64,000 nt of DNA from a virus (Duplodnaviria; Caudoviricetes): positions 50,521 to 114,520 of the IMG/VR virus record IMGVR_UViG_3300042862_000163; one strand, given 5' to 3'. The translations under genes were made by a program, and so were the position numbers. The notes beneath the pieces are model-generated. The model saw nothing but the letters and a program-made list of their open reading frames with translations. It was not told the origin of the DNA and ran no database searches. Shown here piece by piece: positions 8,604 through 49,153 of the stretch. Every line of letters starts with the position of its first letter. Position 1 is the stretch's first letter.

Positions 8604-8604
8604 T

Positions 8605-11600
8605 ATGGCACATTGTGTAAATAGAAGTTCTCCAGAATTTATAGCATTAGCTGAACAATCTAATATCAATCCAATAATTCTTGCTGCAAAGGTTTCTTTG
8701 TGGCAGGAAGTTAATGGTTTAGATAATTTTCCTGCATTAGAAAATATAGTAAAATCTACAGAAGAAAAAACTATACCACAAACTGCATCACCACAAACCC
8801 TTGCATTAATAAAAGATTTTATTAAACGTATTGGTGTTGATGCAAAATCAATGCAAAATATTGTAGTGAATGGCGTTAAGCAAGATGCTAATGGTGTGGC
8901 ATTGCTTATGCAAAAACTTATTCAAGTAGTAGAGGGTACAGAAGCACAATCTCTTCCTGAAGAAGCTATGCACTTTGCTGTAGCTATTATTAAACAAACC
9001 AACCCTAAGTTGTATAAAAAATTGATGAGTGAAATAAATAACTATCAATTAAAGAATGAAGTGTTTGAAACTTATGGTAGTGATCCAGGATATCAATTAG
9101 ATGGTAAACCAGATGTTATTAAACTTAAAGAAGAAGCTATTGCTAAAGTGTTAGTTGAAACTATAATTAACAATAATGAAAACAACCCTGAAAAACTAGA
9201 GCTTATAGCTAAATCACAATCATGGTGGAATGATATTATAGATTATTTTAAAAACTTATTCATGAAAAGTGGATTTGATAAACTGTCTATGAATATTATT
9301 TCAGGAAAGAATATAGGAACAGCTGAAGATATTAGAGAAGAGGAAGGTACATTCTTTTTACAAAAATCTAGACAAGAACAATTAGTTAGTAGTATAAAAG
9401 AAATATCTGATAGAATAAGTTTAGATACAGTTAAGAATGATGCTGGTGGAGAAGATTCAAAATATTTTATTGATGGTAAAGAAATCAAATGGAGAGTTAG
9501 TAATATAACTAAAACTTGGTATGATATATTACGTAGAGATAAAGCATTGAATGATTCTGAATTTAAAAAAGCAGTTAACACATTAAAGGCTGACAAAGGA
9601 ACTGCTTTACATAAAGATACGGAACATGCTATGTCTATTCTTACTGATGATAGTGGTAAATTAAGAAGTAGAGAAGAGCTAAATGACATTATAGCTAATG
9701 ATAATCATGTATCATTTGGAGATCCAAACAATAATGATATGTATCATCTCTTGAGAGATAATCTAAGAGCTCGTATGGAATCATTTCCTAAAGATACTAT
9801 ATTCATGTCTGAAGTTACAATATACGATGCTAAAAGAGATTTAGCAGGCACCGTAGATTTTTTAGCTATTACACCTACAGGAAAGATTAATATATTAGAT
9901 TGGAAATTTATTGGACTTGATACAGCTAAGTTTAAAGATATTCCTTGGTACAACGTTGCTTCTTGGAATAGACAAATGAATCAGTATAAAACTATAATTA
10001 AAGATAATTATGGTGTAGAAAATAAAGATTTTGAACAAACAAGAATGATTCCTATCAAAGCTGTTTATTCAGAAGCTAATGCAAAAACAGGAGCACTTCC
10101 TAATTTATTAAATGTAATAATAGGAGATGTTAATGTTAAAAATATTAAAGAAGATTATTTAATACCTGTTCCAGCTCCTGGAGAAAAAGTTATTATAGAA
10201 AACGATGTTGCAGCAAGTAAAAAAATTAATTTATTATTAGATAAATTGAATGATGTGTATGCAAAACTTTCTGAACAAAAAGCATTACCATCTGAAAGAC
10301 TTAATAAATCTGAACAATTAAATGCTTTATATTCTGCAATTAGACAATTGCAAATGAAACAAGACATAGGACCTTTGTTATATCAAGCTAAAGTGTTGAA
10401 TGTGCAGATCCAAGGAATTATAGAAACATACAATACTAAATTCAAAGATGTAGATAGAGAAACTTTAAAAGGTGATGAAGTAGAAGATTTCACAAAAACA
10501 ATGTTAGTAGCAGAAGATGCTTTACAACATTATACAACTTTGGATTTAGATTTAGATTTTCTTTTTGAAGGAAAAACTACTGATGAAGAAAAAGCTTTAA
10601 AAGAAGAATTAAGAGAAACAGCTTATCAATCTAGAAAACTTAAAGAAACATTAGGTGAGTTATTTACAGAATTCACTGTAGATAATATTGGAGGTACAGA
10701 AAAAGGAGAGAAAGTTGTAAAAGATATATTTTCTAAATGGTTAGGAACAACTTCTACTATACAGATTAAAAGTGTTCAAGATTTATTCAAAATGGCTAAT
10801 GCAGCATTTGGACGTGCTGGTATGGATACACAATCAGAAGTTAAGAAATTAACAGAATTAAAAAAATCTTTTCAAGCATGGGCAAGTAACAAAGGTCTTA
10901 CATCTAAAAATATGTTTTCTCTTATTAAGAAAAAAGGAGAGAATGAATTAATAGACCAATATCAAAACGAATTTTACAAAACATTAACTTCTAAGATAGA
11001 AGCAAAAGATTTTGATTGGATAAGAGATAATGTTGATGTAGATGCATATAAAGAATATTTAGAAGAAAAATTAAAGACAGAATATAAAAGGATAGAAGAT
11101 AAATCTAGAGTTGGTTCAGAAGAAGAGAATTATAATGCAGTGACTAGAGAACAATTTGAAGCTAAGAACTTATATGACATATCTACACCTAAATCTGTGG
11201 GATGGTTGCTATATAATGATATTAAGAATTTCCCAGTTGAAACTTGGGAATCTAAAGAATGGAAAGAATTACATGCTAAAGATACCAATGGTAATTATAT
11301 AAATAAACCAGCTTTAGATTTTTATAATTATATTATAGAAAGAAATAATGAATATGCAAAAATAGGATATATACAAGATAAAACAGCTAGAACATTTCTT
11401 CCATGGGTTAGAAAAGGTTTTACAGAAAAACTTATATTTGGTGGAAACATAACAGTAGGAGAACAGTTTTTAAAAAGTATATCAGTTGATCCTGATGAAG
11501 TCGGATTTGGTTCTTTTGATCCAATTTCAGGAAAAATAATAAATAAGATTCCTAGATATCTAGTAAGTAAATTTGAAGAAGAGGCATCAGAAGATTTATT

Positions 11601-13392
11601 TAAAACTATGGCAATGTATAATGAATTTGCTATTAAGTTTCAGTATTTATCACAAATAGAAAATCAAGGAAGAGCATTGCTAAGACTTGAACAAAACAAA
11701 AAAGCTATTGCAACCTCTCAATTTGGAAAAACACAAAAGGATGAGTATGGTGAATTAGTATATACAAATGATAATAATGAGAACACTAAACTATATGAAG
11801 ATATGTTCAAAGCTATTGTATATCAACAAAAGTATATACAAAGTGAAGCATTTGATCAATTGCTAGGAAAGTTTGGTAATTTTGGTACAACTATAAATGA
11901 TAAACTTGGATTTAAACTATTACCAGAAAATTTAGATGGAAGACAAATAAGTATTAATAAAGCTATAACACAATTAAATAATACATTTCAAGTGACAGCT
12001 TTAGGTCTTAATATACTATCATCATCATCTAACTACTTTGGAGGTACAGCACAAGGGTTTATTAACGCTGGTAAGTATTTTACTAAAGCAGATTATGCAG
12101 CTACAGAAATGTGGTTACTAGGTAATAAAATGGGTGGTGTAGATAAACAGAAAATTCTTGCTGCACTTGAATATTTTATACCATTCACAGACAATTATAA
12201 TAAACAAGCTACAACGCATCTTTCTTTAAATAAATTAGATGAGCAAGCTGTGCAAGATTGGTTAATGATAATGATGAGAGAAGGAGATGAAGCTGTACAA
12301 AGATTAAACTTTTTTTCTTTCTTGAAAAATTCAATTGTTGTAGATGGTAAAGTGGTTAACTCTAGAGAATATTTAAAAACTACAGAAGAGTATAAAGAAT
12401 TTTATAAAGGAACTGAACAAGAAAGAAAAGATAGAGCTGATAAATTTGAAAAAGATGTAAAGGCTATTAATGAAAAACAAGGAGTATTAGCTTTAAGTAC
12501 AGTAGAAAATGGTGAACTTATTATTCCTGGTGTAGATAGAAAATCTGATTCTGTAATAGAACTAAGAAGAAAAGTGCAAAGTTTTACTGCTGATGCTTTA
12601 GGTTCTATGACAGAAGAAAATAAACGTCTAATGAATTTAAATATATATGGAAACTCATTCATGGTATTTAAAAACTGGATCCCAAGACTTGTAGATGTAC
12701 GTATGGGTAATATTAAATACAATGCTGCTTCTGATGCTTATGAATGGGGAAGAACTAGAATGATAGCTAGATTTGTATCAGATGATCTTAAAGGAGCATT
12801 AGGTAATCTTAAAAATTCTTTAATGGGTAATGATAAAGGAATGGAATATATAAGAGAACTATATGAGAAAAAAAGAGCTGATTATAAAGCTGATACTAAT
12901 AAAGAACTTGAAATGACAGAAGATGAATTTATCGATCTTGTTAGAGCAAATATTAAGAATCAATTAATAGATGTATTATTCTATGCAGGATTGTGGGCAT
13001 TGTTTTTAGGAATGAAAGCATTAGCTCCAGATGATGATGAAGATCCAGCTGTTAGAAGTCAATGGAACTTCATGCTTAAAGCAACAGATAAATTTAAAGA
13101 TGAGGTTGGATATTTTTATAATCCTGGAAGTTTAACAAGTTTAGTATCAAAAGGAGCATTCCCAGCTATGGGACTTATAACTAATTATGAAAAAGCATTA
13201 GGAGGATTTTTAAAAGAATCATATGCTTTAGGAACAGGAGATGATGAATCAGCTGAAAAGAATCAAGTTATAAAATATTGGATGAAAACAAATCCTATAA
13301 CTAATCAAGCTGCAGGATTACTTCCTATGTTTTACCCTGCTTTAGCAAAAGATCTTGGTATAAAGATGCAATCCCAATATGGTATAAGATAG
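8605..13392 (+). CDS. Large virion/ejection protein with degenerate zincin-like and PD-(D/E)xK nuclease-like domains
   Basis: 1595 aa, directly after the vRNAP. LPEEAMHF at about 8953-8976. SEVTIYD..LAGTVDFLAI..ILDWKF at about 9808-9910. Hydrophobic segment near the C-terminus. Confidence 0.7.
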   Translation: MAHCVNRSSPEFIALAEQSNINPIILAAKVSLWQEVNGLDNFPALENIVKSTEEKTIPQTASPQTLALIKDFIKRIGVDAKSMQNIVVNGVKQDANGVALLMQKLIQVVEGTEAQSLPEEAMHFAVAIIKQTNPKLYKKLMSEINNYQLKNEVFETYGSDPGYQLDGKPDVIKLKEEAIAKVLVETIINNNENNPEKLELIAKSQSWWNDIIDYFKNLFMKSGFDKLSMNIISGKNIGTAEDIREEEGTFFLQKSRQEQLVSSIKEISDRISLDTVKNDAGGEDSKYFIDGKEIKWRVSNITKTWYDILRRDKALNDSEFKKAVNTLKADKGTALHKDTEHAMSILTDDSGKLRSREELNDIIANDNHVSFGDPNNNDMYHLLRDNLRARMESFPKDTIFMSEVTIYDAKRDLAGTVDFLAITPTGKINILDWKFIGLDTAKFKDIPWYNVASWNRQMNQYKTIIKDNYGVENKDFEQTRMIPIKAVYSEANAKTGALPNLLNVIIGDVNVKNIKEDYLIPVPAPGEKVIIENDVAASKKINLLLDKLNDVYAKLSEQKALPSERLNKSEQLNALYSAIRQLQMKQDIGPLLYQAKVLNVQIQGIIETYNTKFKDVDRETLKGDEVEDFTKTMLVAEDALQHYTTLDLDLDFLFEGKTTDEEKALKEELRETAYQSRKLKETLGELFTEFTVDNIGGTEKGEKVVKDIFSKWLGTTSTIQIKSVQDLFKMANAAFGRAGMDTQSEVKKLTELKKSFQAWASNKGLTSKNMFSLIKKKGENELIDQYQNEFYKTLTSKIEAKDFDWIRDNVDVDAYKEYLEEKLKTEYKRIEDKSRVGSEEENYNAVTREQFEAKNLYDISTPKSVGWLLYNDIKNFPVETWESKEWKELHAKDTNGNYINKPALDFYNYIIERNNEYAKIGYIQDKTARTFLPWVRKGFTEKLIFGGNITVGEQFLKSISVDPDEVGFGSFDPISGKIINKIPRYLVSKFEEEASEDLFKTMAMYNEFAIKFQYLSQIENQGRALLRLEQNKKAIATSQFGKTQKDEYGELVYTNDNNENTKLYEDMFKAIVYQQKYIQSEAFDQLLGKFGNFGTTINDKLGFKLLPENLDGRQISINKAITQLNNTFQVTALGLNILSSSSNYFGGTAQGFINAGKYFTKADYAATEMWLLGNKMGGVDKQKILAALEYFIPFTDNYNKQATTHLSLNKLDEQAVQDWLMIMMREGDEAVQRLNFFSFLKNSIVVDGKVVNSREYLKTTEEYKEFYKGTEQERKDRADKFEKDVKAINEKQGVLALSTVENGELIIPGVDRKSDSVIELRRKVQSFTADALGSMTEENKRLMNLNIYGNSFMVFKNWIPRLVDVRMGNIKYNAASDAYEWGRTRMIARFVSDDLKGALGNLKNSLMGNDKGMEYIRELYEKKRADYKADTNKELEMTEDEFIDLVRANIKNQLIDVLFYAGLWALFLGMKALAPDDDEDPAVRSQWNFMLKATDKFKDEVGYFYNPGSLTSLVSKGAFPAMGLITNYEKALGGFLKESYALGTGDDESAEKNQVIKYWMKTNPITNQAAGLLPMFYPALAKDLGIKMQSQYGIR

Positions 13393-15656: not shown

Positions 15657-16175
15657 ATGGCAATACCATCAAAACAAATAGGTCAATCATCAGAATCTAA
15701 TTTACTTTGGAATATATCTAAACAATTAGATCAATTGACAAAAATTACTAATGCTTCTTCTAATGTAACAGTGGAAAATACTGGAGCAAATCCTGTTCCT
15801 ATTAGTCCAAGACCTAATACTACTGGAGCAAATGGAACAACTCCTTATAAATTAATATCATTAGCTACAACAAATGCTAATGTTGTTAAAGCTTCACCAG
15901 GAAATTTATATTCTATTGTAGCCATTGGATTAACTTCAACCGTTAGATATTTAAAATTGTACAATAAAGCAACATCACCAACTGTAGGTACAGATGTTCC
16001 ATTAATGACTATTCCTGTTCCAGCTAATACACAAGGAGCAGGTATATCTATTCCATTCTCTATGGGAGTTAATTTCCCTTTAGGAATTGCTCTTTCCATA
16101 ACAAGTGGATTAGCAGATAATGATACAGGAACAATATTAGCAAATGATGTAGTGATAAACTTAACTTACGCATAA
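15657..16175 (+). CDS. Putative virion structural/decoration protein
   Basis: Helical N-terminus plus beta-rich C-terminal domain (YLKLYNKATSPTVGTD..F.LGI); structural-gene context. Confidence 0.55.
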   Translation: MAIPSKQIGQSSESNLLWNISKQLDQLTKITNASSNVTVENTGANPVPISPRPNTTGANGTTPYKLISLATTNANVVKASPGNLYSIVAIGLTSTVRYLKLYNKATSPTVGTDVPLMTIPVPANTQGAGISIPFSMGVNFPLGIALSITSGLADNDTGTILANDVVINLTYA

Positions 16176-18376: not shown

Positions 18377-19390
18377 ATGAAACCAATATTAATTACATGT
18401 CAACCTACAGATACATACTTTGTATGGCAAAATCATATGTATATAGAATCTTGTATAGCTCAAGGATTTAAAGAAGAGCAAATACATATTCTTTTATACA
18501 ATCCTATAGGGAGAGTTTATAACACTAGCTGGGATAAGTTAAAAGAATGTTATCCAAAACTAAATATATTTATATATGAAGATAAAGGAGTTCAGCAATT
18601 TCTTGGAACTTATATTCCTATATTAAGACCTCATATTCTTTGGCAACATTTTGAAGCTTTTCCAGAATTACAAGATAGAACAATTATATATACAGATAGT
18701 GATATTCTTTGGTTAGATTCATTAAATATAAATCATTTATTAGAAGATGATATAAATTATGTTAGTGATGCTAATTCATATTTGAATCATTCATATTTTG
18801 AAAGTAAGTATAGAGATGTACTTCCTGAAAAATTAGAAGAAGCTAAATCAATAGATTTTTTAAAAGGAGTTTGTGATATAGTTGGTATAGATAAACAAGT
18901 TGTAATAGACAACAATTCTAATACAGGAGGTGTACAATATATTCTAAAAGATATAGATGCATCATTTTGGAAAAAAGTTGAAACAGATGTTCTTAAAATA
19001 AGAATATATCTTCAACAGATGAATAGAGATTATTTCAAAGATGAAAATAGTGGTATACAATCATGGTGTGCAGATCTTTGGGCAGTACAATTTAATCTTT
19101 GGTTCTTCAATAAAGAAAGTAAAGTAGCTAAAGAATTAGCATTTGCTTGGGCTACAGATCCAATTATAAAAATAGAAACATATCCTATTCTTCATAATGC
19201 AGGAATAGTTTCTGAAACAGGAAATGGTTATCCAGCTTTCTACAAAGGAAAGTATCATATGGGTACAGACCCAACAAAAGATCCTAACCTACAATTAATA
19301 CTTAATAATGAACAATCAAAGAAGTATTGTACTTGGTATTATGCAGAAAAATTAAATACAATCAAAAATAAATATAACCTTAATTATTAA
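18377..19390 (+). CDS. GT-A fold glycosyltransferase resembling HPAT/SGT1 (GT95/GT96) protein O-glycosyltransferases
   Basis: YFVWQ, YIPILRP, DxD (YTDSDIL), GGVQYI and SWCADLWA motifs in the HPAT/SGT order. Confidence 0.6.
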   Translation: MKPILITCQPTDTYFVWQNHMYIESCIAQGFKEEQIHILLYNPIGRVYNTSWDKLKECYPKLNIFIYEDKGVQQFLGTYIPILRPHILWQHFEAFPELQDRTIIYTDSDILWLDSLNINHLLEDDINYVSDANSYLNHSYFESKYRDVLPEKLEEAKSIDFLKGVCDIVGIDKQVVIDNNSNTGGVQYILKDIDASFWKKVETDVLKIRIYLQQMNRDYFKDENSGIQSWCADLWAVQFNLWFFNKESKVAKELAFAWATDPIIKIETYPILHNAGIVSETGNGYPAFYKGKYHMGTDPTKDPNLQLILNNEQSKKYCTWYYAEKLNTIKNKYNLNY

Positions 19391-19394
19391 AAAC

Positions 19395-19565
19395 ATGTCA
19401 AATCAGAGAAATTTAAAAGCATTTGTTCGCTTCGATGGAAGTGGAAGAGTTGTCGCAGGCAGCTTGATCTTGAGAAGAAGTAAACCAAAAGTGGGTAAAT
19501 GGCAAGAGATAACAGCATATGAATGTTGTAATCCTACTACCACTACTACTACAACAGTAGTTTAA
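19395..19565 (+). CDS. Small protein (56 aa) ending ECCNPTTTTTTTVV
   Basis: Hand-translated from ATG 19395 to TAA 19563-19565; fills the gap between flanking genes. Confidence 0.75.
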   Translation: MSNQRNLKAFVRFDGSGRVVAGSLILRRSKPKVGKWQEITAYECCNPTTTTTTTVV

Positions 19566-19576
19566 TTTAATGTAAA

Positions 19577-19990
19577 ATGGCACTAAAATCACTATTTCCA
19601 GATGACATGATGAAATCATCATCTGAAGGCTTAACGTTAGAAAGTATAGCTGCAAAGCTTACTTACTTCCATGAGCAATTGCATTTATTGCATTGGCAAA
19701 CTAGTTCATATGCAGAGCACCAAGCTCTTGGTGGATTATATGATTATGTACATGATTTTAAAGATGGTGTAGTTGAAAAGATTATGGGCTATACAGGTAA
19801 AAGACCTGGAGCTTATAAAATAGAACCTCTTGGTGGAGCTAATGCTTCTTCTGTTGTTTCTGAACTTATGAGCTTTGCATCATCATTAAAAGCATATGGT
19901 GAAAAAAATGCTTATCACGATATATGTAATCTTGCAGATAGTTTATCTGGAGAAGCGGCTAAAACAAAATATCTATTAACATTATCATAA
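19577..19990 (+). CDS. Ferritin/Dps-like protein (DUF5856-like)
   Basis: HLLHWQT.SYAEH.AL..LYD...D..VE four-helix iron-binding pattern. Confidence 0.75.
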   Translation: MALKSLFPDDMMKSSSEGLTLESIAAKLTYFHEQLHLLHWQTSSYAEHQALGGLYDYVHDFKDGVVEKIMGYTGKRPGAYKIEPLGGANASSVVSELMSFASSLKAYGEKNAYHDICNLADSLSGEAAKTKYLLTLS

Positions 19991-20274
19991 TGGAAATAAA
20001 CAGAAAACATTTTCCTAAAGTGATGCAAGATAATGATGAAACATTTCTTGCACATCTGGAAGGTGTTATTTCTTCTGTTGATGAACTATGTAGCTTAGAG
20101 ATAACAAAGAGCTTAGAATCATATAGATTCAGAATAGCTTGTAGTCTTCCTAAGTATAATAATATGGTGATTGAAGAAATATTAAAGTTCTGTAATCTAT
20201 TCCATATAAGACTTGATATGAGCAAGAGTATTAAAACAACAAGCGTTATTACGTTTGAAATAAATCTAAATTAA
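19990..20274 (+). CDS. Hypothetical protein
   Basis: Translationally coupled ORF. Confidence 0.6.
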   Translation: MEINRKHFPKVMQDNDETFLAHLEGVISSVDELCSLEITKSLESYRFRIACSLPKYNNMVIEEILKFCNLFHIRLDMSKSIKTTSVITFEINLN

Positions 20275-20275
20275 T

Positions 20276-21598
20276 ATGCCTACATTTATAAAACCAGGAT
20301 TCTGGGAAAAAAGACAAAAAGGATATGACCATTGGTTAAACCTTGATCAATTAATAATTTCATTGAGCCCTCCAGCTACAACTGGTCCATTTGAATACAA
20401 TGCAAATGCAACTGGTATTCAGCCAATATTAGGAACTAATGTTGCAAGTGGTACAAATGCTACAATTGGTGGTGGTATTTATAATACTGCTTCTTGTAAT
20501 TATTCAACAGTTGGTGGTGGTCAAGGTAATACTGCTTCTAATTATCATTCAACTATTAGTGGTGGTTATGGTAATACTGCTTCTAACAGTTATTCAACAG
20601 TTGGTGGTGGTTTAAGTAATACTGCTTCTTCTAATTATTCAACAATTGGAGGTGGTCGAAACAACATTGTTTCTGGATGTTATGCGACAGTTGGTGGAGG
20701 AGGAGGATTTGGATACTCTGGAAACTCTGGTTATCCAGATTATTCTCCTATTTATTCAAGTTTTGGCAACAATGCTTCTGGATGTATTTCAACAATAAGT
20801 GGTGGTAGATGCAATACTGCTTCTAGTTATTATTCAACAATTAGTGGTGGTTCTTTAAATACTGCTTCTGGTTCTAATTCAACAATTGGTGGTGGTAATC
20901 AAAATACCGCTTCTAACGCTTATTCAACAGTTGGTGGTGGTTATAGAAATACTGCTTCTGGTTCCCTTTCAACAGTTGGTGGTGGTTTAAGTAATACTGC
21001 TTCTCAATATGCTTCAACAGTTGGTGGTGGTATATTTAATACTGCTTCTCAATATGCTTCAACAGTTGGTGGTGGTAAATGCAATATTGCCCCTGGTTCT
21101 TGTTCAACAATTGGAGGTGGTTATAAAAATATTACTAGTGATTATTCAACAGTTGGTGGTGGTAGATATAATATTGCTTCTAATTTTACATCAACAATTG
21201 GTGGTGGTCAATATAATACCGCTTCTGGTTTAGGTTCAACAGTTAGTGGTGGCGGAGTGAATTATTATAATAGTAGTGTTTATGGTGCTGGTAATATTGC
21301 TTCTGGCGATTCTTCAACAATCGCTGGTGGTTTGTTTAATACTGCTTCTGGATGTAGGTCAGCAATTGGGGGTGGTTGTATTAATGTTGCTTCTGGTACT
21401 TTTTCTGGAATATTAGGAGGGTCATATAATAACACAAATACTTGCAATTTTGCAATGATTGTCGGTACAAATATAACTGCCGACAGAAGTTGTGCTACAT
21501 TTGTAAATAACTTATCAATCAAAAACATTCCAACTGCAAGTGCTGGTTTACCAAGTGGGTCTGTTTGGAAAAATGGAAATGTATTAAATATAGTTTAA
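20276..21598 (+). CDS. Gly-rich repeat (beta-solenoid/adhesin-like) virion fibre
   Basis: About 20 copies of a 15-aa NTASxxxSTIGGGxx repeat; C-terminal PTASAGLPSGSVW motif. Confidence 0.75.
   Translation: MPTFIKPGFWEKRQKGYDHWLNLDQLIISLSPPATTGPFEYNANATGIQPILGTNVASGTNATIGGGIYNTASCNYSTVGGGQGNTASNYHSTISGGYGNTASNSYSTVGGGLSNTASSNYSTIGGGRNNIVSGCYATVGGGGGFGYSGNSGYPDYSPIYSSFGNNASGCISTISGGRCNTASSYYSTISGGSLNTASGSNSTIGGGNQNTASNAYSTVGGGYRNTASGSLSTVGGGLSNTASQYASTVGGGIFNTASQYASTVGGGKCNIAPGSCSTIGGGYKNITSDYSTVGGGRYNIASNFTSTIGGGQYNTASGLGSTVSGGGVNYYNSSVYGAGNIASGDSSTIAGGLFNTASGCRSAIGGGCINVASGTFSGILGGSYNNTNTCNFAMIVGTNITADRSCATFVNNLSIKNIPTASAGLPSGSVWKNGNVLNIV
20438..21427 (+). repeat. Coding tandem repeat with a 45-bp unit
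   Basis: For example AATACTGCTTCTCAATATGCTTCAACAGTTGGTGGTGGT at 20993 and 21038. Confidence 0.9.
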
Positions 21599-21672: not shown

Positions 21673-21993
21673 ATGGAAAATTTCACAATTCACATCTTTG
21701 GTTACGGAGAAACACAAATCAACTCAAAAGATTTATCTGTAAAAGTTGCAACTGATACGTTAACTACTGTAACGCCTTTAATCACTGGGATATTTGCTAA
21801 AAAACCAGCAGACAATCCAACATTAATTACAGACTTTCACGCAATTAACCTATTTGGTTATAATGATGTTCGTTGGCAAGTAAAAAATAACGGTTTTAAT
21901 GTTAAAGATGATGTAGAGCTAAAACCTCTTATTGATGCTTTAATTGCTGAATTGCAAACTACCACTACTACTACCACTACTACAGTTGTATAA
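21673..21993 (+). CDS. Hypothetical protein ending LQTTTTTTTTTVV
   Basis: ORF track; poly-Thr C-terminus. Confidence 0.75.
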   Translation: MENFTIHIFGYGETQINSKDLSVKVATDTLTTVTPLITGIFAKKPADNPTLITDFHAINLFGYNDVRWQVKNNGFNVKDDVELKPLIDALIAELQTTTTTTTTTVV

Positions 21994-22047: not shown

Positions 22048-22872
22048 ATGGAAAGAAAATTCTTTTTTAATTCATCTCTACCGAGAGCTGGATCAACATT
22101 ATTACAAAACATAATTGCAGATAATCCAGAATTCTATTGTACACCTACAAGTGGATTTTTAGAATTGATTTTAGCAGCTAAACAAAGTTTTAGTCAATCA
22201 CCAACAGTGAAGGCTCAAGATGATGCATTAATGACTAAAGCATTTCTTTATTTTTGCAAAGGAGCAATGGATGGTTATTTTAATGCTTTAACTGATAAAC
22301 CCTATATATTAGATAAAAATAGAGCATGGGGAATTCATTTACCATTAGTTAAACAATTTACTGGAGAACAGCCTAAAATGGTTTTTATGGTAAGAGACAT
22401 TAGAGCTATTTTTGCTTCTATGGAAAAAAACTTTCGTAAAAATCCAACTAAAGAAAACCATATTCAAAATCCTGATCAGATGGTTGGCACTACCCTTCAG
22501 AAAAGAGTAGAACTTTGGTCTAATAATGTTCCTATAGGAATAACTATGGATAGATTAAAAGATATGATTGACCAAGGAATAGATAAAAAAGTTTTATTTA
22601 TTCGTTATGAAGATCTGATGGACTTTCCAGAACAAGAAATTAAACGTTTTTATGAATATATGGAACTTCCATATTATGAAGGACATAATTTCAATACTGT
22701 AACACAACACACACATGAAAATGATTCATTTCATGGTATATATGGTGATCACGTGCTAAGAGAGAAGTTTGAAAGAAAACCTGATGATTTTGAGGATATA
22801 TTAGGATTTGAGATTTGTCAATCAATAAAGAATGCATATCCTTGGTTCTATAAGAAATTTGGATACGTTTAA
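22048..22872 (+). CDS. PAPS-dependent sulfotransferase
   Basis: 5'-PSB motif SLPRAGSTLL, DKNRAW, 3'-PB motif MVRD....S, IRYEDL. Confidence 0.9.
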   Translation: MERKFFFNSSLPRAGSTLLQNIIADNPEFYCTPTSGFLELILAAKQSFSQSPTVKAQDDALMTKAFLYFCKGAMDGYFNALTDKPYILDKNRAWGIHLPLVKQFTGEQPKMVFMVRDIRAIFASMEKNFRKNPTKENHIQNPDQMVGTTLQKRVELWSNNVPIGITMDRLKDMIDQGIDKKVLFIRYEDLMDFPEQEIKRFYEYMELPYYEGHNFNTVTQHTHENDSFHGIYGDHVLREKFERKPDDFEDILGFEICQSIKNAYPWFYKKFGYV

Positions 22873-22888
22873 TCATAAAAAAACCAAC

Positions 22889-23758
22889 ATGAATATAATA
22901 TTTGATATATCAGGAGGATTGGGTAAAAACATTCTTTCTACAGCAGTATTAAAAGCAATTAGAAAACAACACAGTGATGCTTACATTATTGTTCTTACAT
23001 CTTATCCAGATGTATTTATTTCTAATCCAAGTATAAATAAAGTTATACAACATGGATCTACTACAGGAATCTATAAAGACTATATTATGTCTAAAGATGC
23101 AAAAGTGTTTGTTACAGATCCTTATACATGTTCTGATTACTTAACAGAATCAAAACATTTAATAGAAATTTGGTGTAAGCTTTGTGAAGTTCCTTATGAT
23201 AATGAAATGCCTGAACTTTTTATCTCTAAAGCAGAAATAGAGTATTTTGCTCCTTTTTATAAACTTGATAAACCTATTATGGTTATACAACCTAACGGTG
23301 GTTCACAAGAGCAACCATTAAAATATAGTTGGACAAGAGATATTCCTGCTCCAGTTATAAAAGATGTAATTGAACATTATAAAAATAAATACACTATTGT
23401 ACATGTTAAAAGAGAAGATCAACCTATTTATGAAAATACAATAGCAGCTCTTGATTCATTTAGAAGTATAGCAGTTCTATTAATTTTATCAGAAAGAAGA
23501 CTTCTCATTGATTCTTCTGTACAACATATAGCTGCAGCATTAGATTTACCAAGTCTTGTATGTTGGATAGGAACAAATCATAAAGTGTTTGGTTATGATA
23601 TGCATGCTAATATAGAAGCTAACACACCAGACAAAGAATTAAATTTTGATCATCCATATTTACAAAAACTTCCTTTATTTGAAGATATTTCTAAATGTCC
23701 TTATACAGAATTGAATAAAATATTTGACAGTAAAGATATAATCAAAGCTTTGAAATAA
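22889..23758 (+). CDS. GT9 (heptosyltransferase-like, GT-B) glycosyltransferase
   Basis: GGLGK N-terminal motif; IDSSVQHIAAALDLPSLVCW. Start refined to ATG 22889. Confidence 0.8.
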   Translation: MNIIFDISGGLGKNILSTAVLKAIRKQHSDAYIIVLTSYPDVFISNPSINKVIQHGSTTGIYKDYIMSKDAKVFVTDPYTCSDYLTESKHLIEIWCKLCEVPYDNEMPELFISKAEIEYFAPFYKLDKPIMVIQPNGGSQEQPLKYSWTRDIPAPVIKDVIEHYKNKYTIVHVKREDQPIYENTIAALDSFRSIAVLLILSERRLLIDSSVQHIAAALDLPSLVCWIGTNHKVFGYDMHANIEANTPDKELNFDHPYLQKLPLFEDISKCPYTELNKIFDSKDIIKALK

Positions 23759-24237
23759 TGGCAATCTATTGGTTTACAGGACAACCTTCACATGGTAAAA
23801 CAACCCTTGCTAATGTTTTAGTAAATAATTTAAAATGGAGAGATAGAAAAGTGTTTCACATAGATGGAGACAATTTAAGAGCCCTTACATTAAATACTGA
23901 TTATTCTAAACAGGGTAGGCTTGATAATATTACAGGAGCTCAAAAGATAGCTAACTACCTTCACAATGAAGGATGGGATGTAGTGGTATCCTTAGTTTCT
24001 CCTTATAGAGAACAAAGAGAACAATTTAAAAAACACATAGGCAATCGTCTTGTAGAATTATATGTACATGCAGAAGAACCTAGAGAAAGAGATAATTTAA
24101 AATCTTTAGATTATGAACCTCCTTTAGAAAACTTTATAGATGTTAACACTACAAATATAGATCCTAAAGATAATATTAAAAACATATTATGGTTAATAGA
24201 AAACGACACATCGCTAAGACTATTACTTATAGAATAA
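23758..24237 (+). CDS. cysC: Adenylylsulfate (APS) kinase
   Basis: WFTGQPSHGKTT P-loop, IDGDNLR, VSLVSPY..R, YEPP. Confidence 0.9.
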   Translation: MAIYWFTGQPSHGKTTLANVLVNNLKWRDRKVFHIDGDNLRALTLNTDYSKQGRLDNITGAQKIANYLHNEGWDVVVSLVSPYREQREQFKKHIGNRLVELYVHAEEPRERDNLKSLDYEPPLENFIDVNTTNIDPKDNIKNILWLIENDTSLRLLLIE

Positions 24238-24392
24238 TAAGTACAATTATAGGATTTGGTATTGTGTATATTTTATCAGGATCTCTAAAAACAGGTGTAG
24301 CTTTTAGTTTTTTAGAAATTATATACAAGCCTGTACAATATTACATACATGAAAGAGTTTGGTATCGATATATTAAATATGGATTAAAATAA
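24189..24392 (+). CDS. DUF2061-like small membrane protein
   Basis: [14 protein letters not shown]...YYIHERVW. Confidence 0.75.
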
Positions 24393-24400
24393 AAAAAATT

Positions 24401-25132
24401 ATGGCAACATTTATTAAAGCAGGTTTTTGGCAAAAATTATGTAATCCTTGTAATGGTTACAAAGGATGGCTTAATTTAGATCAGTTGATAGAAAGTATAG
24501 CTGGTCCAGGAGTTCCTGGTCCACAAGGTCCTAAAGGTCCTCAAGGAGTACAAGGAGAACAAGGAGTTAAAGGTGACCAAGGTATACAAGGAGACACAGG
24601 TCCTCAAGGTCCTTCAGGACTTACAGGTTTATTTGCTCAAACTGCTGATAGTGCACCTGTAGTAAATACTGCAGTGGAAACAACAATAGTAGGACCAGGT
24701 GTTGGTTCTCTTACTGTTCCTGCAAATGGATTTCAAATAGGAGATAGTTTTACTTGTGCACTAGATGGATTAGTTACTTGTGGAAGTTCAGCAACATTAC
24801 ATATTCGTATTAGAACATTATCTGGAGTGATTTTAGCTGATACAGGTATAATTGATATGGCAGCTGCAACTGATAAATCTTGGATAATAAATTTATATTT
24901 TACAATAAGAACATTAGGAGGAGTAGGTGTTGCATCAATTTCATCAGGTGGATTATTTTCTTATATTAGAAATGGAGGTACACAGTTTGAAGGATATGTT
25001 TTAAGTACAGTTAATACTACAACATTTAATACAACTATTGATAATACACTTGTAATTACAGCACAATGGGACCCAGGTTCTATAGGTAATTCAATAGTAA
25101 CAAGAAACTTTACGCTCACTAAAGTATATTAA
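24401..25132 (+). CDS. Collagen-like virion fibre protein
   Basis: About 13 G-X-Y triplets followed by a beta-rich head; N-terminus shared with the 20276 protein. Confidence 0.8.
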
Positions 25133-25199
25133 AATATATTTGGTTATTAAATTTATATTTTTTACTTTTACGAATTATTAATAATTTAAAACCAATATT

Positions 25200-25445
25200 A
25201 TGGCACAGTATGACCCAAATTCCAAATATACTTGGAAACCTGAAGACACATTTACATTAACAGGACAAGAGTTTGGTCTAATTCTTAACACAGTTAGATC
25301 TTATTTATCATCAGAAGAAGCTGCAAGATTTCAATTAATGATTCAAACTAATCAAGTGATTGAGAAAATCATGAAAGAAGCAGTAGAAAATGATGTTATT
25401 ACAGAAGTTGTGGAAGAAGTTCCTACAATGGAAGTGGTGCAATAA
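25200..25445 (+). CDS. Hypothetical protein
   Basis: ORF track; preceded by TATATTTG at 25135. Confidence 0.65.
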   Translation: MAQYDPNSKYTWKPEDTFTLTGQEFGLILNTVRSYLSSEEAARFQLMIQTNQVIEKIMKEAVENDVITEVVEEVPTMEVVQ

Positions 25446-25502
25446 CACAACATAGCTGTTGGGAGACGAATAACAGCTGTTTTCAAACAAAAGCTCTTCT
25501 CT

Positions 25503-25706
25503 ATGAGAATATACGAACCAAAGAATAGAATAGATGTTACAACACCCAAGGGAGATGGGATTATCTGGATTATTACAGAATTCGGAACAGAAACAGATAC
25601 CATCTATACAATTATTATTAATGACACAGGTGAGATGTGGCAATACACTCACAAAGATATTATTGTAAAACCCAATATAACATTTAAACGCTATGGCAAC
25701 AATTAA
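25503..25706 (+). CDS. Hypothetical protein (beta-rich)
   Basis: ORF track. Confidence 0.6.
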   Translation: MRIYEPKNRIDVTTPKGDGIIWIITEFGTETDTIYTIIINDTGEMWQYTHKDIIVKPNITFKRYGNN

Positions 25707-26127
25707 AAAAGCACAGAATGGTGCTAAAACTAAAGATAGTACAGCATATTTTTCAAATGTGAAAAATAATGCATATAAAGTTGCAGATGAATACCGTAAC
25801 GCTGCTTTTTCTGGAGGAGATGTAAGAGAAAAAGCTAAAAAAGTTGCATTTAAAGCATCTGATGATTTAATAAGACAATCTAAAAAAGGAAAACCAGGTA
25901 AGGATGCTAATGGTTATCCAGTAAAAAAGAAAATGAAAAATGGTGGAAGTCTAACTGGACTTAAAGCATCTAACAAAAGAGTTGGTCCTGTAGATCCAAA
26001 AGGAGCATTCACAAAGGTACAAAAGAAAACATTAGCTGGTGCTAAAGGAAAAGCTTCTCTTACCAAAGATAAACAACTTGGTGCTACAAAGATGGCTAAA
26101 TGTGGTGCTAAAATGTCTAAGAAATAA
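25693..26127 (+). CDS. Lys-rich basic protein with KAQxG/KxGG motifs
   Basis: KKAQNG, MKNGG, AKCGAKMSKK. Confidence 0.7.
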   Translation: MATIKKAQNGAKTKDSTAYFSNVKNNAYKVADEYRNAAFSGGDVREKAKKVAFKASDDLIRQSKKGKPGKDANGYPVKKKMKNGGSLTGLKASNKRVGPVDPKGAFTKVQKKTLAGAKGKASLTKDKQLGATKMAKCGAKMSKK

Positions 26128-26288
26128 TGGCAACTGATAAAAAGTGGATTCAATCTGCAACAGCCTCTATAAAAAAAAGAGGAACTGCTGGGAAATGCAC
26201 ACCTATCACAAAGAAGGGGTGTTCTGGAAAAGCTAAAACTTTAGCTCTTACATTCAAAAAAATTGCTAAATCTAATAAGAAGAAATAA
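26127..26288 (+). CDS. Small Lys-rich protein (53 aa, MATDKKWIQ...)
   Basis: Hand-translated; TAATG-coupled on both sides. Confidence 0.7.
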   Translation: MATDKKWIQSATASIKKRGTAGKCTPITKKGCSGKAKTLALTFKKIAKSNKKK

Positions 26289-27394: not shown

Positions 27395-27790
27395 ATGGCA
27401 ACAATAAAAAAAGCTCAAGCAGGAATCACTGCTAAAAAACCTGCAGTTAAAATAGAAAAGAAAACTACTGTAACAGCTAAACCTAAGACTGCTTCTCAGA
27501 GAATTGGAGACTTAACATTAAGAGATATTAAAAATTCTACTGAAACAGCTCTTGATCTTTCTACTCTTGGTGCATATGGAGCTGCAAAAAAAGGTATTAA
27601 AAAATTAACTGGTATGAAATCTGGTGGCAATATGAAGAAAGCTAAATCTGGTATATCATTAGGAATGAAATCTGTTAAAGCAGGTGTTGATAAGAATCCT
27701 GGTGTAACTAGAGCTGATATTATTACAGCTGCAACAAAGAAAGCTAAATCAGGAGCTAAGATGACTAAATGTAAAACTGGTTGTAAATAA
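27395..27790 (+). CDS. Lys-rich basic protein with KAQAG/KSG motifs
   Basis: N-terminus MATIKKAQ is identical to that of the 25693 protein. Confidence 0.7.
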   Translation: MATIKKAQAGITAKKPAVKIEKKTTVTAKPKTASQRIGDLTLRDIKNSTETALDLSTLGAYGAAKKGIKKLTGMKSGGNMKKAKSGISLGMKSVKAGVDKNPGVTRADIITAATKKAKSGAKMTKCKTGCK

Positions 27791-27951
27791 TGACTTCTGG
27801 TAAAGCAAAGAAATCAGGAGCTCCAAGAAAAGCTCCAAAGGTTGGTATTCCTAGAAAGGACAAACCTTTTTCAAAGACTAAGTCTATGGATGATAAAGCT
27901 ATAAGAACTTCTCCTCAACAACCAATGAAACAAAAGAGATTATCCAAATAA
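27790..27951 (+). CDS. Small Lys-rich protein (53 aa, MTSGKAKKSG...)
   Basis: Hand-translated; ends at the terminator. Confidence 0.65.
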   Translation: MTSGKAKKSGAPRKAPKVGIPRKDKPFSKTKSMDDKAIRTSPQQPMKQKRLSK

Positions 27952-27952
27952 A

Positions 27953-27977
27953 AAAAGCCCTTGAAATAAGGGCTTTT
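27953..27977. terminator. Bidirectional intrinsic terminator at the convergence of the two genome arms
   Basis: AAAAGCCCTT-gaaat-AAGGGCTTTT. Confidence 0.85.
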
Positions 27978-28065
27978 CTATTTAAAACAATTAAAACAAT
28001 TAAAAAAATAAGAAAGAAAAATAATAATTTTGTTGGAGAGCTTTTGCTTTACAAATATATAACAT

Positions 28066-28743
28066 TTATTTCAATTGATCATAATAATCATTATTAAAAT
28101 GTGGATGAAGAATAATATTTCCTTTTGTATCATCTAACACTCTATCTGCATGATCTAATATAACTTGATTGTCATTATTTCCTAACCCTGAAACATGGAA
28201 TGTGTTCATTCCCCATCTATATATCATTGTATGTTTTAACTTTGATTCATATATTTTTCCATTATTATGAAATGTTATATCTGCATCTTCTCCATTACTT
28301 GTATTAGGCCATTTAATTCTATTTAAATAATCTTTGGTATATATATTACCATTGTTAATATTGCTTGATTCTTTCTCAAATTTATTATCAACAAAGAAAT
28401 ACATTCCTTCACTTCTATAAATATCAAATCCTGGATTAGTATCTATATCAATTTGTGCATTCTTTAGTGCCCATGGAGCAAGTAAATCATCATCATCTAA
28501 TCTATATATGTATGGATAATTACATTGTTTATATCCCCATTCAAGTTTAGCTGATATAGAAGGAAATCTAGTTTCACAATTGATAATCCTTACTCTAGGG
28601 TGATTATAGATATATTTTATATCTGGATTATCATTAACTATAACCATTTCACATTCTGGTGTGAGTTCTTGTGATATAAATGATTGAATTGCTTCTTCAA
28701 GCAAATGATGTCTTTTGTATGTAAGTGTTAAAACTGAAATCAT
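28066..28743 (-). CDS. GT2 family glycosyltransferase
   Basis: ISVLTLTY.R, IVND, RLDDDD, GED. Confidence 0.85.
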   Translation of the reverse strand: MISVLTLTYKRHHLLEEAIQSFISQELTPECEMVIVNDNPDIKYIYNHPRVRIINCETRFPSISAKLEWGYKQCNYPYIYRLDDDDLLAPWALKNAQIDIDTNPGFDIYRSEGMYFFVDNKFEKESSNINNGNIYTKDYLNRIKWPNTSNGEDADITFHNNGKIYESKLKHTMIYRWGMNTFHVSGLGNNDNQVILDHADRVLDDTKGNIILHPHFNNDYYDQLK

Positions 28744-29507
28744 TTTGGTAGTATTAGTCCGTTATTAAAATATGTTGGTAGTATTGTCCAATCTTTACAA
28801 TATATTTCTTGCCATTTACTTGGACCTTTTGGACCAAACCATGTTTCTGGTGCAATAACTATTTTTTCAGTATTTCTAGATAAATAAGCTGCCCACCAAC
28901 TAAATGATGAATTAGATATAATAAAATGATGACACATAGACATAATCCATAATTGTTCATGTATTTCCCAATCTTCTAGATATATCACATTAGGTAAGTT
29001 TATGTGTTCTTTACACCATGGAATATCATCACTAGCAATAATATATTGTTTTGAAGGAACTAGTGATATTGCCTTCATTATATAATCTAATGATATTACA
29101 GGATGATAGTCTGAATATATTAGATAATCTCCTCTTCGAACATTGATTACTGTCACCTCTGTGTTAAAGATGACAGGAATCTCTGTATGTATTCTATTTA
29201 TGAATTCTTTAGTAGGAGAGAATAAAGATTTAATTGCCTCACTGTATTTGTTAAAATAGGTTTCATCTTGAAAGTATCCTGTATACACAGTAACTTTATT
29301 ACTAATAATATCATTTGGATGATCTATGAAAAAATCTAGTTTTCTAAATATATTATTTATAAAATCATTAGTATGTCCTACTTGATTTGCAGGAATTACA
29401 AGTTGTCTATTTTCATCCATAGCTCTTGCATATGCATTAGCAATCATAAACAAATTGTTACCAAGTCTTCCTCCTAAAGAAGGCATTATAAAATCTTCAT
29501 TTAACAT
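28740..29507 (-). CDS. GT11 alpha-1,2-fucosyltransferase-like
   Basis: GGRLGNNLF, GYFQ, VRRGDY, SDD..WC, ISNSSFSWWAAYL. Confidence 0.9.
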   Translation of the reverse strand: MLNEDFIMPSLGGRLGNNLFMIANAYARAMDENRQLVIPANQVGHTNDFINNIFRKLDFFIDHPNDIISNKVTVYTGYFQDETYFNKYSEAIKSLFSPTKEFINRIHTEIPVIFNTEVTVINVRRGDYLIYSDYHPVISLDYIMKAISLVPSKQYIIASDDIPWCKEHINLPNVIYLEDWEIHEQLWIMSMCHHFIISNSSFSWWAAYLSRNTEKIVIAPETWFGPKGPSKWQEIYCKDWTILPTYFNNGLILPK

Positions 29508-29508
29508 T

Positions 29509-30237
29509 CTACCACACCATTATAACATTGTTAAAACACTCCTTGCTACCATTAAACTTTAATAATGGTTTATATTTATTATCTTTATTCATATTTTTTA
29601 ATTTTATTTCTAAATCGTATATATCATTTGAGTCTCCCTCAATGATTTTTAATATAGTATGATTGTAAGGCATTTCTGTTTTAGATTGAAATCTTCTTTT
29701 TATATCAACAAATGTTCTTCCTATCTTGTAAAAAGTTTCTTGGTCATTCCAACATTTAATTATATAAATTTTAAAACTTTCAAATCTTTTAGATTTTTTA
29801 GCAGCATCTTTCCAATTAGTCTTAGACCATCCAGTAGGATTACTAGAATGATGATCTGAACAAATTTTATCACCACATTTAGGACATCCCTGCCCCATAG
29901 AATGTGCTCCAGCAGTTTGTTCAAATAAACCATGATCTTTACATATTATTTTTACTTTATCTAATAAAGTTTTATATTTTAATAAACTATAATCATATTT
30001 ATTATTATGAACAGCTATCATTTTATTTATAAAATATAAATTTTTATCTACTGCAGTTATTATAGTAGGAATAACCCCATCTAAAAGATGGGATTTTCTA
30101 CATTTATTTATTCCATAGATATTATTAACTAAAATATATTCTGAATTACTATTTTCTATATTTTCAAAAGTAAATAGTGAATCAGGAAATTTAGTATAGA
30201 ACTTAAGTTTAAATATGTCAAAACTTTTTTCTGTCAT
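29509..30237 (-). mobile_element. Free-standing homing endonuclease (Zn-binding DUF723-like domain plus GIY-YIG/T5orf172-like domain)
   Basis: H..KYDYS..CKDHG.F.Q....H..G.GCPKC; IYIIKC..YKIGRT..E..KECF. Confidence 0.75.
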
Positions 30238-33749: not shown

Positions 33750-34493
33750 TTAGTTTTTAAATTTCCATTTATAACCATAGGCTGTTTTAGCTACATTACC
33801 CTGACTATTTTTTTTACCTGAACATACTCTATTAATTAAACTATTGGAGAATCCTAATTCTCTTTCTACTTTATTAGCTGACTCCCATTCTTTAATAAAA
33901 TTATTTTCTAAATCAAATTGTAAAACAGGTTTTGACAATTTTTTACCTATTTTTTCTCCTACTGATTTATCTCTTTTTTTACCAGTATTTGCTTTTTTCA
34001 TTGCTTCTATTTGTTTGTCAAAGCCAACACCACTTTTAATTAATGAGTTGTTTTTACCTTTTTGATTTTCAGATAATATTTTTTTAACATCATCTGTTCT
34101 TTTTTTACCAATTAATTTTTGTCTTCTTTTTTCAATAGTTTCTTTAGATTGTGTTTTACCTAAATTTATATCTCTTAAAAGTTGTTTAGTTTCTTCTCTT
34201 CTTACCACACCTAAAGAACTACCTGCAATTTTACAGATATTATATTGGGGTAATAATATATCAATGTAATACTGTTCTTTTTCTATTAATTCAGAAATAG
34301 AACAGTATTCTACAACAGTTAATAAAAAATCAACACTTTTTTTATTATAAGCTCTCTGCAAATGTATATTTGGATGATTACCTTTATTTAATCTTTCTAA
34401 ATGTTTTCTCCATCTATTATGTATGTCATAAGAACTACCAATATAAAAGTATTGATTTTCTGGATTTGTGATTTTATATATACCTGATTTCAT
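33750..34493 (-). mobile_element. GIY-YIG homing endonuclease with NUMOD3/NUMOD1-like DNA-binding modules
   Basis: SGIYKI...FYIGSS..R..H...E.EQ.YID...YN; KPVLQFDL..FIKEWES..AYGYKW. Confidence 0.93.
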
Positions 34494-43818: not shown

Positions 43819-43852
43819 CTTATTTATTTATTTAATTGTTAATTGTTAAAAG

Positions 43853-43874
43853 AGAGGGACACTGATGTCCCTCT
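43853..43874 (-). terminator. Stem-loop (terminator or processing site) between rIIA and rIIB
   Basis: AGAGGGACA-ctga-TGTCCCTCT, followed by CTTTT on the minus strand. Confidence 0.6.
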
Positions 43875-43880
43875 GTTAAT

Positions 43881-48970: not shown

Positions 48971-49153
48971 TTATAATTTTTTTATTTCTAATTTAACTTC
49001 TTGCCAATAATCTAAAGATTCAAATACTCTTTCTTGTAATAAAACAGTTTCTATTTCTTCTACTGCTATAATTGCAGATTGTTTAGCATTGTGTTTATGA
49101 GTTTCAAAACTCATTTTATCAAATAACTCTTCAGCTTTATCTTTTGGACTCAT
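48971..49153 (-). CDS. Small paralog family B (PK.KA.EL...A.IAV.E...EVK.EI..L)
   Basis: Similar to the 55614 and 55841 ORFs. Confidence 0.65.
   Translation of the reverse strand: MSPKDKAEELFDKMSFETHKHNAKQSAIIAVEEIETVLLQERVFESLDYWQEVKLEIKKL

Follow-up and report, generated by a model that had tools for sequence, protein, structure and literature searches.

The DNA analyzed here, which we call the window, is a stretch of 64,000 nucleotides from a virus of the Caudoviricetes, and comprises the final 64 kb of a viral record of 114,520 bases (IMGVR_UViG_3300042862_000163) with an estimated completeness of 99%. It has a G+C content of about 30% and belongs to a large tailed phage. The terminase, portal, and virion protein genes lie upstream of the window, which itself contains two giant open reading frames (ORFs), an endolysin, and fibre-like proteins, followed by a replication module on the minus strand; a megablast search with 10 kb of the window returned zero matches among GenBank phages. 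We examined the gene at 18377-19390, a single ORF on the plus strand with an ATG start and 337 amino acids, together with nearby ORFs that end in runs of threonine. The gene encodes a protein with the fold of a glycosyltransferase, and we argue below that this protein probably adds sugars to those runs, which we call threonine tags. Three features are central to the analysis.

18377..19390, + strand: GT-A fold glycosyltransferase with a DxD motif (hereafter the GT), phrog_4417; proposed poly-threonine protein O-glycosyltransferase (ORF, profile, fold, invariant DxD)
19395..19565, + strand: 56-residue micro-protein, T56, with a beta domain, a Cys-Cys pair, and a tail of seven threonines (T7); proposed acceptor (homologues, model)
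21673..21993, + strand: 106-residue protein ending in T9-VV, with the nine threonines at 21958-21984; second proposed acceptor (threonine tail; without family match)

The enzyme at 18377-19390

An earlier note, made from the sequence alone, had called this gene a phage glycosyltransferase on the basis of five motifs. All five are present in the translation, in the order given there: YFVWQ (residues 14-18), YIPILRP (79-85), DSD (107-109), GGVQYI (184-189), and SWCADLWA (229-236). We aligned 69 sequences, with relatives at 28-62% identity, and found that Y79, D107, D109, Y135, Q228, F256, H273, and K290 are invariant, while G184, G185, Q187, and Y188 are conserved at 90% or more. Because residues of the motifs are invariant across this alignment, their presence reflects conservation and not chance. 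The two aspartates of D107-S-D109 are invariant in two further alignments as well, of 17 and 118 relatives, and they stand after the fourth strand, in the place of the DxD motif for metal and nucleotide sugar.

Sequence databases offer little by way of a name. The GT matches phrog_4417, a family annotated 'unknown function' in PHROGs, with an E-value of 5.5e-50; residues 5-319 align to positions 3-286 of the 293 in the profile. It matches no Pfam family at E <= 0.1, Glyco_transf_8 included. Searches of the PDB sequence set with the GT alone and with the 69-row profile gave best E-values of 0.52 and 0.023, the latter to a designed protein, and since the profile retrieved no GT8 chain from that set, the protein does not join CAZy family GT8 by sequence. 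The family is nonetheless large: an exhaustive search of metagenomes yielded 719 representatives of clusters (E <= 0.001), and members occur in 77 records of GenBank phages, including well-studied ones of Enterococcus, Lactococcus, Lactobacillus, and Staphylococcus. Among the matches listed, the relatives that have names are called 'hypothetical', 'Uncharacterized protein', 'Phage protein', or 'Prophage pi2 protein 34', and in a search with a profile of the Bacillota-type relatives, none of the 120 listed proteins had a precomputed Pfam family.

Structure is more informative. An AlphaFold2 model built on the 69-sequence alignment has a pLDDT (predicted local distance difference test) of 96.9 and a pTM (predicted template modeling score) of 0.93, and in this model the protein is, with confidence, a single-domain GT-A fold. 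The top VIA-align matches to the model are 6mw8, the Skp1 alpha-galactosyltransferase (Z 14.1), and LgtC (13.9), followed by WbbM, glycogenin, and UGGT (13.5 each), GlyE (13.0), and, lower down, PBCV-1 A64R (10.9). A Z of at least 8 was reached by 103 PDB representatives, and the 22 best-ranked are without exception GT-A glycosyltransferases; the best alignments cover 209-250 residues with a root-mean-square deviation of 3.4-4.5 A and a sequence identity of 6-12%. Foldseek gave E-values of about 1e-6 to UGGT, glycogenin, and XXYLT1, and 320 matches at E <= 0.001. In a library of viral structures the close matches are uncharacterized phage proteins only, with GT8-like proteins of giant viruses next. 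Fold, DxD motif, and confident model together bear out the call of a phage glycosyltransferase.

Two properties of the enzyme can be read from the model. The N-terminus, MKPILITCQPTDTYF, contains no hydrophobic segment and leads directly into strand 1 (model residues 4-10); because the model begins with a strand at residue 4 and lacks a hydrophobic N-terminus, we read the GT as a predicted soluble, cytoplasmic enzyme. The mechanism is probably retaining, since the nearest folds are those of retaining enzymes. We take these folds to belong to GT8 and GT24, and we presume that the D-x-D, Gln, His, and Lys residues of the GT match the GT8 catalytic set.

Threonine tags and their association with the enzyme

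The threonine tracts that the earlier note placed beside the gene are real, and no other run of five or more threonines occurs in any of the window's six frames. Only 6.7% of the residues in the long ORFs of this genome are threonine, so a run of seven is not expected by chance. T56 begins directly after the stop codon of the GT and ends in CCNP-T7-VV-stop, with the T7 at 19536-19556. An alignment of its family shows a conserved 45-residue domain, an invariant Cys-Cys pair, the T7, and an optional (V/A/I)AP-T7 extension, and the domain is modeled as three strands with a disordered tail. A predicted complex of the GT with T56 (score 0.00, mark 0.32) counts neither way. The 106-residue protein lies about 2.3 kb beyond T56; it has no homologue in the 62 related loci described below and no Pfam or PHROG match. 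Outside the window, the same genome contains two more ORFs with runs of at least six threonines, and all are on the structural strand. A 667-residue protein has four such runs, with a T7-VAP-T7 arrangement preceding its Fib_succ_major domain, and a 1714-residue virion structural protein also has a run of at least six; a 384-residue protein between virion genes has two runs of five. Upstream of the window, at positions 24250-26253 and 27788-28645 of the record, two proteins of the structural region end in Fib_succ_major domains (E 4e-42 and 3e-38), the 667-residue protein being one of the two.

We collected 62 related viral loci, that is, members of the GT family with their flanks (L001-L062), and found at least one ORF ending in a threonine run in 55 of them. 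A T56 homologue is present in 58 of the 62, in most cases with its start no more than about 30 bases from the stop codon of the GT, and often in two or three tandem copies. Upstream of the GT, the relatives usually carry an ORF of 44-56 amino acids that also ends in T7 (for example, L010 5211-5345). The tags have a preferred length: 170 of the 305 runs of four or more threonines are exactly seven long, which is the mode, and 39 are eight long, while the arrangement T7-(V/A/I)AP-T7 is frequent. Nor is this a general tendency toward homopolymers, as threonine accounts for 229 of the 248 runs of at least six identical residues in these loci and the next residue, glycine, for nine. The codons within the runs are mixed (808 ACA, 784 ACT, 343 ACC, and 23 ACG). 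Because the codons are mixed, the reading frame is conserved, and the runs are strand-specific, the tag is a feature of the protein; these same properties rule out repeats maintained at the level of DNA. ACC makes up 17.5% of the codons in the runs, against about 4% of threonine codons genome-wide.

A set of 15 large relatives was picked by means of the terminase. The GT is present in 14 of these, and all 15 have 8-26 (ACN)7 sites on the coding strand, compared with 0-2 on that strand for the reversed control pattern.

The association extends to distant phages. We examined eight GenBank phages with GT relatives at about 28-32% identity, taken non-randomly from hit lists, and seven have threonine or mixed serine/threonine tracts in genes adjoining the GT. 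For example, in Enterococcus phage phiFL1A the GT is flanked by the genes for the major tail protein and the tail chaperones, and a long threonine tract closes the tail protein as well as the capsid-like gp45. In R9.1 (Lacticaseibacillus), P1046 (Lactococcus), TPWB06 (Arcanobacterium), and Planchet (Enterococcus), the GT comes after a gene for a capsid or tail protein, and proteins of these kinds terminate in threonine runs, among them major capsid and major tail proteins in the first three. Genes rich in threonine, or in serine and threonine, immediately precede the GT in Lactobacillus phage Iacchus and Chryseobacterium phage MA9V-3. A further phage, VPE25 of Enterococcus, has a tail of ten threonines on its major tail protein. 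In two of these phages a different frame encodes a threonine tract, immediately downstream of the capsid gene in VPE25 (L410 4753-5000) and across the end of the major tail gene in TPWB06 (L312 7663-7917); these tracts could be unannotated small ORFs, or frameshift extensions that put a threonine-rich tail on some subunits.

Another check on the association is whether the tags are lost together with the enzyme. We took the tail protein of phiFL1A as a probe and compared homologous capsid and tail proteins in phages with and without the GT. In Coetzeevirus R3.3, which has the GT, the capsid protein ends in ...TTTTTTKAPTTTTTSSHA and the tail protein in ...TTTTTTSHA, whereas in the Coetzeevirus phages Bassarid, phiJL-1, and cIP1, which lack it, the capsid and tail proteins end without a run of five or more threonines. 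The same pattern separates phiFL1A, with the GT, from the Streptococcus phages Javan47 and Javan505, without it. Threonine tails are thus present on four of four capsid and tail proteins in the phages with the GT (R3.3 and phiFL1A) and on none of nine in the five phages without it, a comparison that amounts to two lineage pairs and not to thirteen independent points. Searches of whole records gave a concordant result: the GT family was found in none of five records on one side and five of five on the other, with 0, 0, 1, 0, and 0 (ACN)6 sites in the records without the GT versus 2, 5, 15, 6, and 9 in those with it.

We also ran the test in reverse, starting from the tracts. Among 121 viral loci (1.05 Mb) picked for an (ACN)8 run alone, five carry the GT family, and in four of these five the GT abuts the ORF with the threonine tract. 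None of 120 control loci (1.08 Mb) picked for a (GAN)8 run carries the family (one-sided exact p ~0.03). The enzyme and the threonine tags therefore co-occur and are lost together, and the link that the earlier note drew between the enzyme and a hydroxy-amino-acid acceptor in the neighbouring tracts is backed by strong comparative evidence.

Relatives of the GT also occur in bacteria. A profile search with a 17-row alignment identified nine loci in bacterial genomes, eight of them in Bacteroidota: Chitinophagaceae (Chitinophaga, Hanamia, Sediminibacterium, and Ferruginibacter), Saprospiraceae, and Cytophagales. Because eight of the nine are Bacteroidota, the comparison suggests that the host of this phage belongs to that phylum. 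Three of the loci (L317, L318, and L319) resemble prophages or phage contigs and have ORFs with threonine tails. In Chitinophaga niastensis (L320 3081-10824), the GT domain is joined to a Glyco_transf_7C domain in a 587-residue fusion, and the gene order is an ORF with a double-glycine-type leader, an ABC exporter with a C39 peptidase, HlyD, the GT fusion, and a LanC-like gene; by its neighbours, this fused GT sits in a peptide-modification context. A Pfam domain was found in 9 of 24 fused relatives (GT2-type domains, Methyltransf_24, and one radical-SAM/SPASM domain), and a search for longer fused relatives yielded one protein only.

Surrounding genes and the proposed acceptor of the enzyme

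The neighbourhood of the GT contains further conserved genes, and beyond them several genes whose products might modify a glycan.

15657..16175, + strand: 172-residue protein, N-terminal ~40 residues homologous to the threonine-tailed micro-proteins (phmmer; 55 of 62 related loci)
19577..19990, + strand: DUF5856 protein, conserved neighbour (PF19174, E 7.2e-13; 57 of 62 related loci)
19990..20274, + strand: 94-residue protein, conserved neighbour (51 of 62 related loci; no Pfam or PHROG match)
22048..22872, + strand: sulfotransferase (PF13469, E 2.6e-14; PF00685, E 8.2e-14; 2 of 62 related loci)
22832..23758, + strand: GT9-like (heptosyltransferase-like) protein, weak match (PF01075, E 0.0099, 15.7 bits against a cut-off of 22; phrog_8954, E 8.7e-07; 2 of 62 related loci)
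23758..24237, + strand: adenosine 5'-phosphosulfate (APS) kinase (PF01583, E 1.7e-20; 0 of 62 related loci within the flanks examined)
28066..28743, - strand: GT2-family glycosyltransferase, candidate glycan extender (PF00535, E 1.3e-10)
28740..29507, - strand: GT11-family (fucosyltransferase family) glycosyltransferase, candidate glycan extender (PF01531, E 4e-27; phrog_2644, E 6.5e-43)

The 172-residue protein has a longer C-terminal part at the point where the 44-56-residue proteins of the relatives have their threonine run; it looks as if a tag had been swapped for a domain. Between the 94-residue protein and the 106-residue protein, at 20276-21598, lies a 440-residue protein with degenerate 'ST(I/V)GGG..NTAS' repeats, which looks like a beta-helical fibre or adhesin; its matches to UspA1 repeats and to the antifreeze beta-roll are below cut-off, and homologues are present in 23 of the 62 related loci. 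The two giant ORFs at 3-13392 (at least 2819 and 1595 amino acids) have no PHROG match at E <= 1e-5.

The genes for the sulfotransferase, the GT9-like protein, and the APS kinase stand in a row immediately after the 106-residue ORF, with overlapping or abutting ends. APS kinase makes 3'-phosphoadenosine 5'-phosphosulfate (PAPS), the sulfate donor of sulfotransferases, and the combination of a PAPS supply and a sulfotransferase in one phage is unusual. The GT2 and GT11 genes overlap by four bases and have an HNH/endonuclease-like ORF as their neighbour where the minus-strand module begins; HNH-like, GIY-YIG, and LAGLIDADG endonuclease ORFs are dispersed through this replication module (29509-30237, 33750-34493, and 49137-49940, minus strand); rIIA- and rIIB-like genes are found at 42280-46181. 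All five of the putative glycan-modifying genes lie outside the conserved cassette, and what ties them to the threonine tags is proximity. The sulfotransferase may be a variable accessory gene that modifies the glycan. The scanned ORFs gave no match to enzymes for nucleotide-sugar synthesis or base hypermodification.

We propose that the GT is a cytoplasmic, DxD-dependent GT-A enzyme that O-glycosylates poly-threonine tags on the phage's own proteins, and we put the probability of this reading at roughly 70%. During infection, the metal-dependent enzyme would take a sugar from a nucleotide-sugar donor and attach it to hydroxyl groups in the tags, which are typically T7, often T7-(V/A/I)AP-T7, and which form C-terminal tails or inter-domain linkers on phage proteins. 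In this phage the tagged proteins would be the 56- and 106-residue neighbours and, beyond the window, several proteins of the virion and of the fibre region. Elongation or decoration of the glycan may then fall to the GT2, GT11, and GT9-like enzymes and to the sulfotransferase, which the phage's APS kinase would supply. The data themselves show the fold, the conservation of residues of catalytic type, and the joint occurrence and loss of enzyme and tags; from these we infer the acceptor, the sugar, the stereochemistry, and the part played by the other enzymes.

Several observations weigh against this proposal. One large relative (G417, 88% complete) has 12 threonine-tract sites, and no GT was detected in it. 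Conversely, Lactobacillus phage SAC12B, the eighth of the GenBank phages, has the GT and no serine/threonine tract within 8 kb, and four chromosomal loci of Chitinophagaceae (L320-L323) have no run of six or more serines or threonines within the same distance. The eight phages were not a random choice, and the gain and loss of tails was seen in two lineage pairs. More generally, co-occurrence cannot fix the acceptor: the GT could extend the glycan of another enzyme, or it could act elsewhere while the tracts serve only as linkers. The latter possibility, in which the acceptor is a host envelope polysaccharide, a lipid-linked glycan, or a small molecule, draws on SAC12B and the four bacterial loci, on the presence of the polysaccharide and lipooligosaccharide enzymes LgtC and WbbM among the nearest folds, and on the many relatives with an attached GT2-type domain or methyltransferase, an arrangement also seen in polysaccharide synthases. 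It is hard to square with the position of the GT in the head and tail morphogenesis modules of unrelated siphophages, right after the major capsid or tail gene, and with the loss of threonine tails from the same proteins in close relatives that lack the GT; moreover, the N-terminus of the GT shows no sign of a signal peptide or membrane segment. We consider a non-protein acceptor unlikely.

We find it more improbable still that the GT merely lengthens a glycan begun on threonine by another enzyme of the host or phage. Such a role would suit the three further GT-like genes of this phage, and structural matches such as the Skp1 galactosyltransferase, XXYLT1, and GlyE act on protein-bound sugars, in part according to their entry titles. 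However, in the flanks examined in small siphophages such as phiFL1A, R3.3, and P1046 this GT is alone, with no other annotated glycosyltransferase, and the other glycosyltransferases of the window are conserved in at most 2 of the 62 relatives while this one is always present. Glycosylation of phage DNA, with hypermodified bases that evade restriction, is a frequent function of phage glycosyltransferases. VPE25, which carries a member of the family, has DNA that behaves as glycosylated in restriction digests; the source names a T4-like beta-glucosyltransferase as the enzyme responsible and also points to a second ORF resembling a sugar transferase, which may or may not correspond to the family described here (PMC4999554). 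But the GT is located in late structural modules away from replication and nucleotide-metabolism genes, temperate phages such as phiFL1A carry it, no base-hydroxymethylating or similar enzyme was matched among the scanned ORFs of this phage (some small ORFs being unscanned), and the coupling with threonine tails would be left unexplained. DNA as the acceptor is thus highly improbable, and glycosylation of the threonine tags themselves remains the reading that we prefer.

That reading can be carried further, into what is a doubtful and frankly speculative extension of it. The GT and a quantized T7 tag might constitute a portable two-part system, found in phages of at least three bacterial phyla, in which a cytoplasmic enzyme turns tagged proteins into mucin-like glycoproteins. 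In this phage the products of its own GT11, GT2, GT9-like, sulfotransferase, and APS kinase genes would go on to fucosylate and sulfate the glycan, giving the virions and free 56-residue 'mini-mucins' a sulfated coat of mucin type.

If threonine tags are glycosylated as proposed, sugar-coated virions would be widespread, with consequences for phage stability, adsorption, mucus adherence, and the immune recognition of therapeutic phages, and a short, genetically encoded T7 tag with a single soluble enzyme would be available for glyco-engineering. The hypothesis is directly testable, as there are cultivable phages with the GT that have natural relatives without it.

Comparison with known systems

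The earlier note had likened the GT, by eye, to the plant and algal peptidyl O-glycosyltransferases HPAT (GT95) and SGT1 (GT96), and membership of these families is not supported as stated. The Pfam HPAT family, PF23452, has a gathering cut-off of 23.9 bits, and it does not match the GT of the window at E <= 0.1. Sub-threshold matches occur in 3 of the 69 relatives, the best with an E-value of 0.012 and 15.4 bits, and they cover only the stretch from YIPxxRP to DxD (profile positions 70-117). No matches were found in the 24 fused forms, in 18 further relatives, or in 118 Bacillota-type relatives. We also searched genomes for PF23452, with no match in 401 Bacteroidota genomes, three Chitinophagaceae genomes, and the phage's own record, nor in four large viral records; 14 control genomes were equally blank, so that absence is not implied. 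The type II membrane anchor that is characteristic of HPAT is missing from the N-terminus of the GT, and the fold searches returned no GT95 or GT96 structure. A faint resemblance remains. HPAT is the only Pfam family that recurs among the 69 relatives, and in a language-model search 21 of 30 named hits were clusters with 10% or 58% PF23452 members, while six were DUF7164 clusters. Because this search places the GT closest to clusters that bear PF23452, HPAT is the closest among the named Pfam families, though the resemblance is faint and we treat it only as a lead.

Published work predicts a GT-A-like fold for GT95 and a novel fold, not GT-A, for GT96 (PMC8476585), and describes GT95 and GT96 as related, with the arabinofuranosyltransferases, including HPAT1-3, being type II Golgi membrane proteins (PMC8012813). 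What the GT of the window would share with HPAT and SGT1 is an acceptor consisting of a hydroxy-amino acid in repetitive tracts. It differs in that the proposed acceptor is threonine, whereas theirs is hydroxyproline (Hyp) or Ser-Hyp4, and in that the GT is predicted to be soluble, unlike the Golgi membrane proteins HPAT1-3 (PMC8012813).

Structurally, the closest enzymes are retaining ones of GT8/GT24 type, which provide the best solved fold matches and share the DxD motif, although the GT has about 80 extra residues in the form of helical insertions. The earlier note had set against its own proposal the case in which the nearest structures are GT8- or GT77-type transferases of lipids or polysaccharides, inactive on peptides. 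Half of this holds: the best solved folds are indeed GT8/GT24-type, but several of them act on proteins or protein-bound glycans according to their titles (glycogenin, the Skp1 galactosyltransferase, UGGT, GlyE, and XXYLT1). PBCV-1 A64R (2p6w) is comparable in another respect, being a virus-encoded, cytoplasmic GT-A enzyme whose entry title describes the glycosylation of the virus's own capsid protein. Its fold matches less well than those of the GT8-type enzymes, its source is a eukaryotic virus, and it uses no poly-threonine tag.

In the literature that we were able to search, which mostly does not cover subscription journals, we found no paper on this GT family or on poly-threonine tags in phages. 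As far as that literature shows, glycosylation of phage-particle proteins has been measured only in mycobacteriophages, where glycans are reported at the C-termini of capsid and tail-tube subunits (Freeman et al. 2023, as cited in PMC12619734). The two systems are alike in relying on phage-encoded glycosyltransferases and on modification in the host cytoplasm (PMC12619734). They differ in that the glycans of mycobacteriophages were measured, whereas here the evidence is co-variation of sequences, and in that the hosts here are Bacteroidota and Bacillota. The system described here also involves an unnamed GT family and a poly-threonine tag with a modal length of seven, which is found on tiny proteins and fibre linkers as well.

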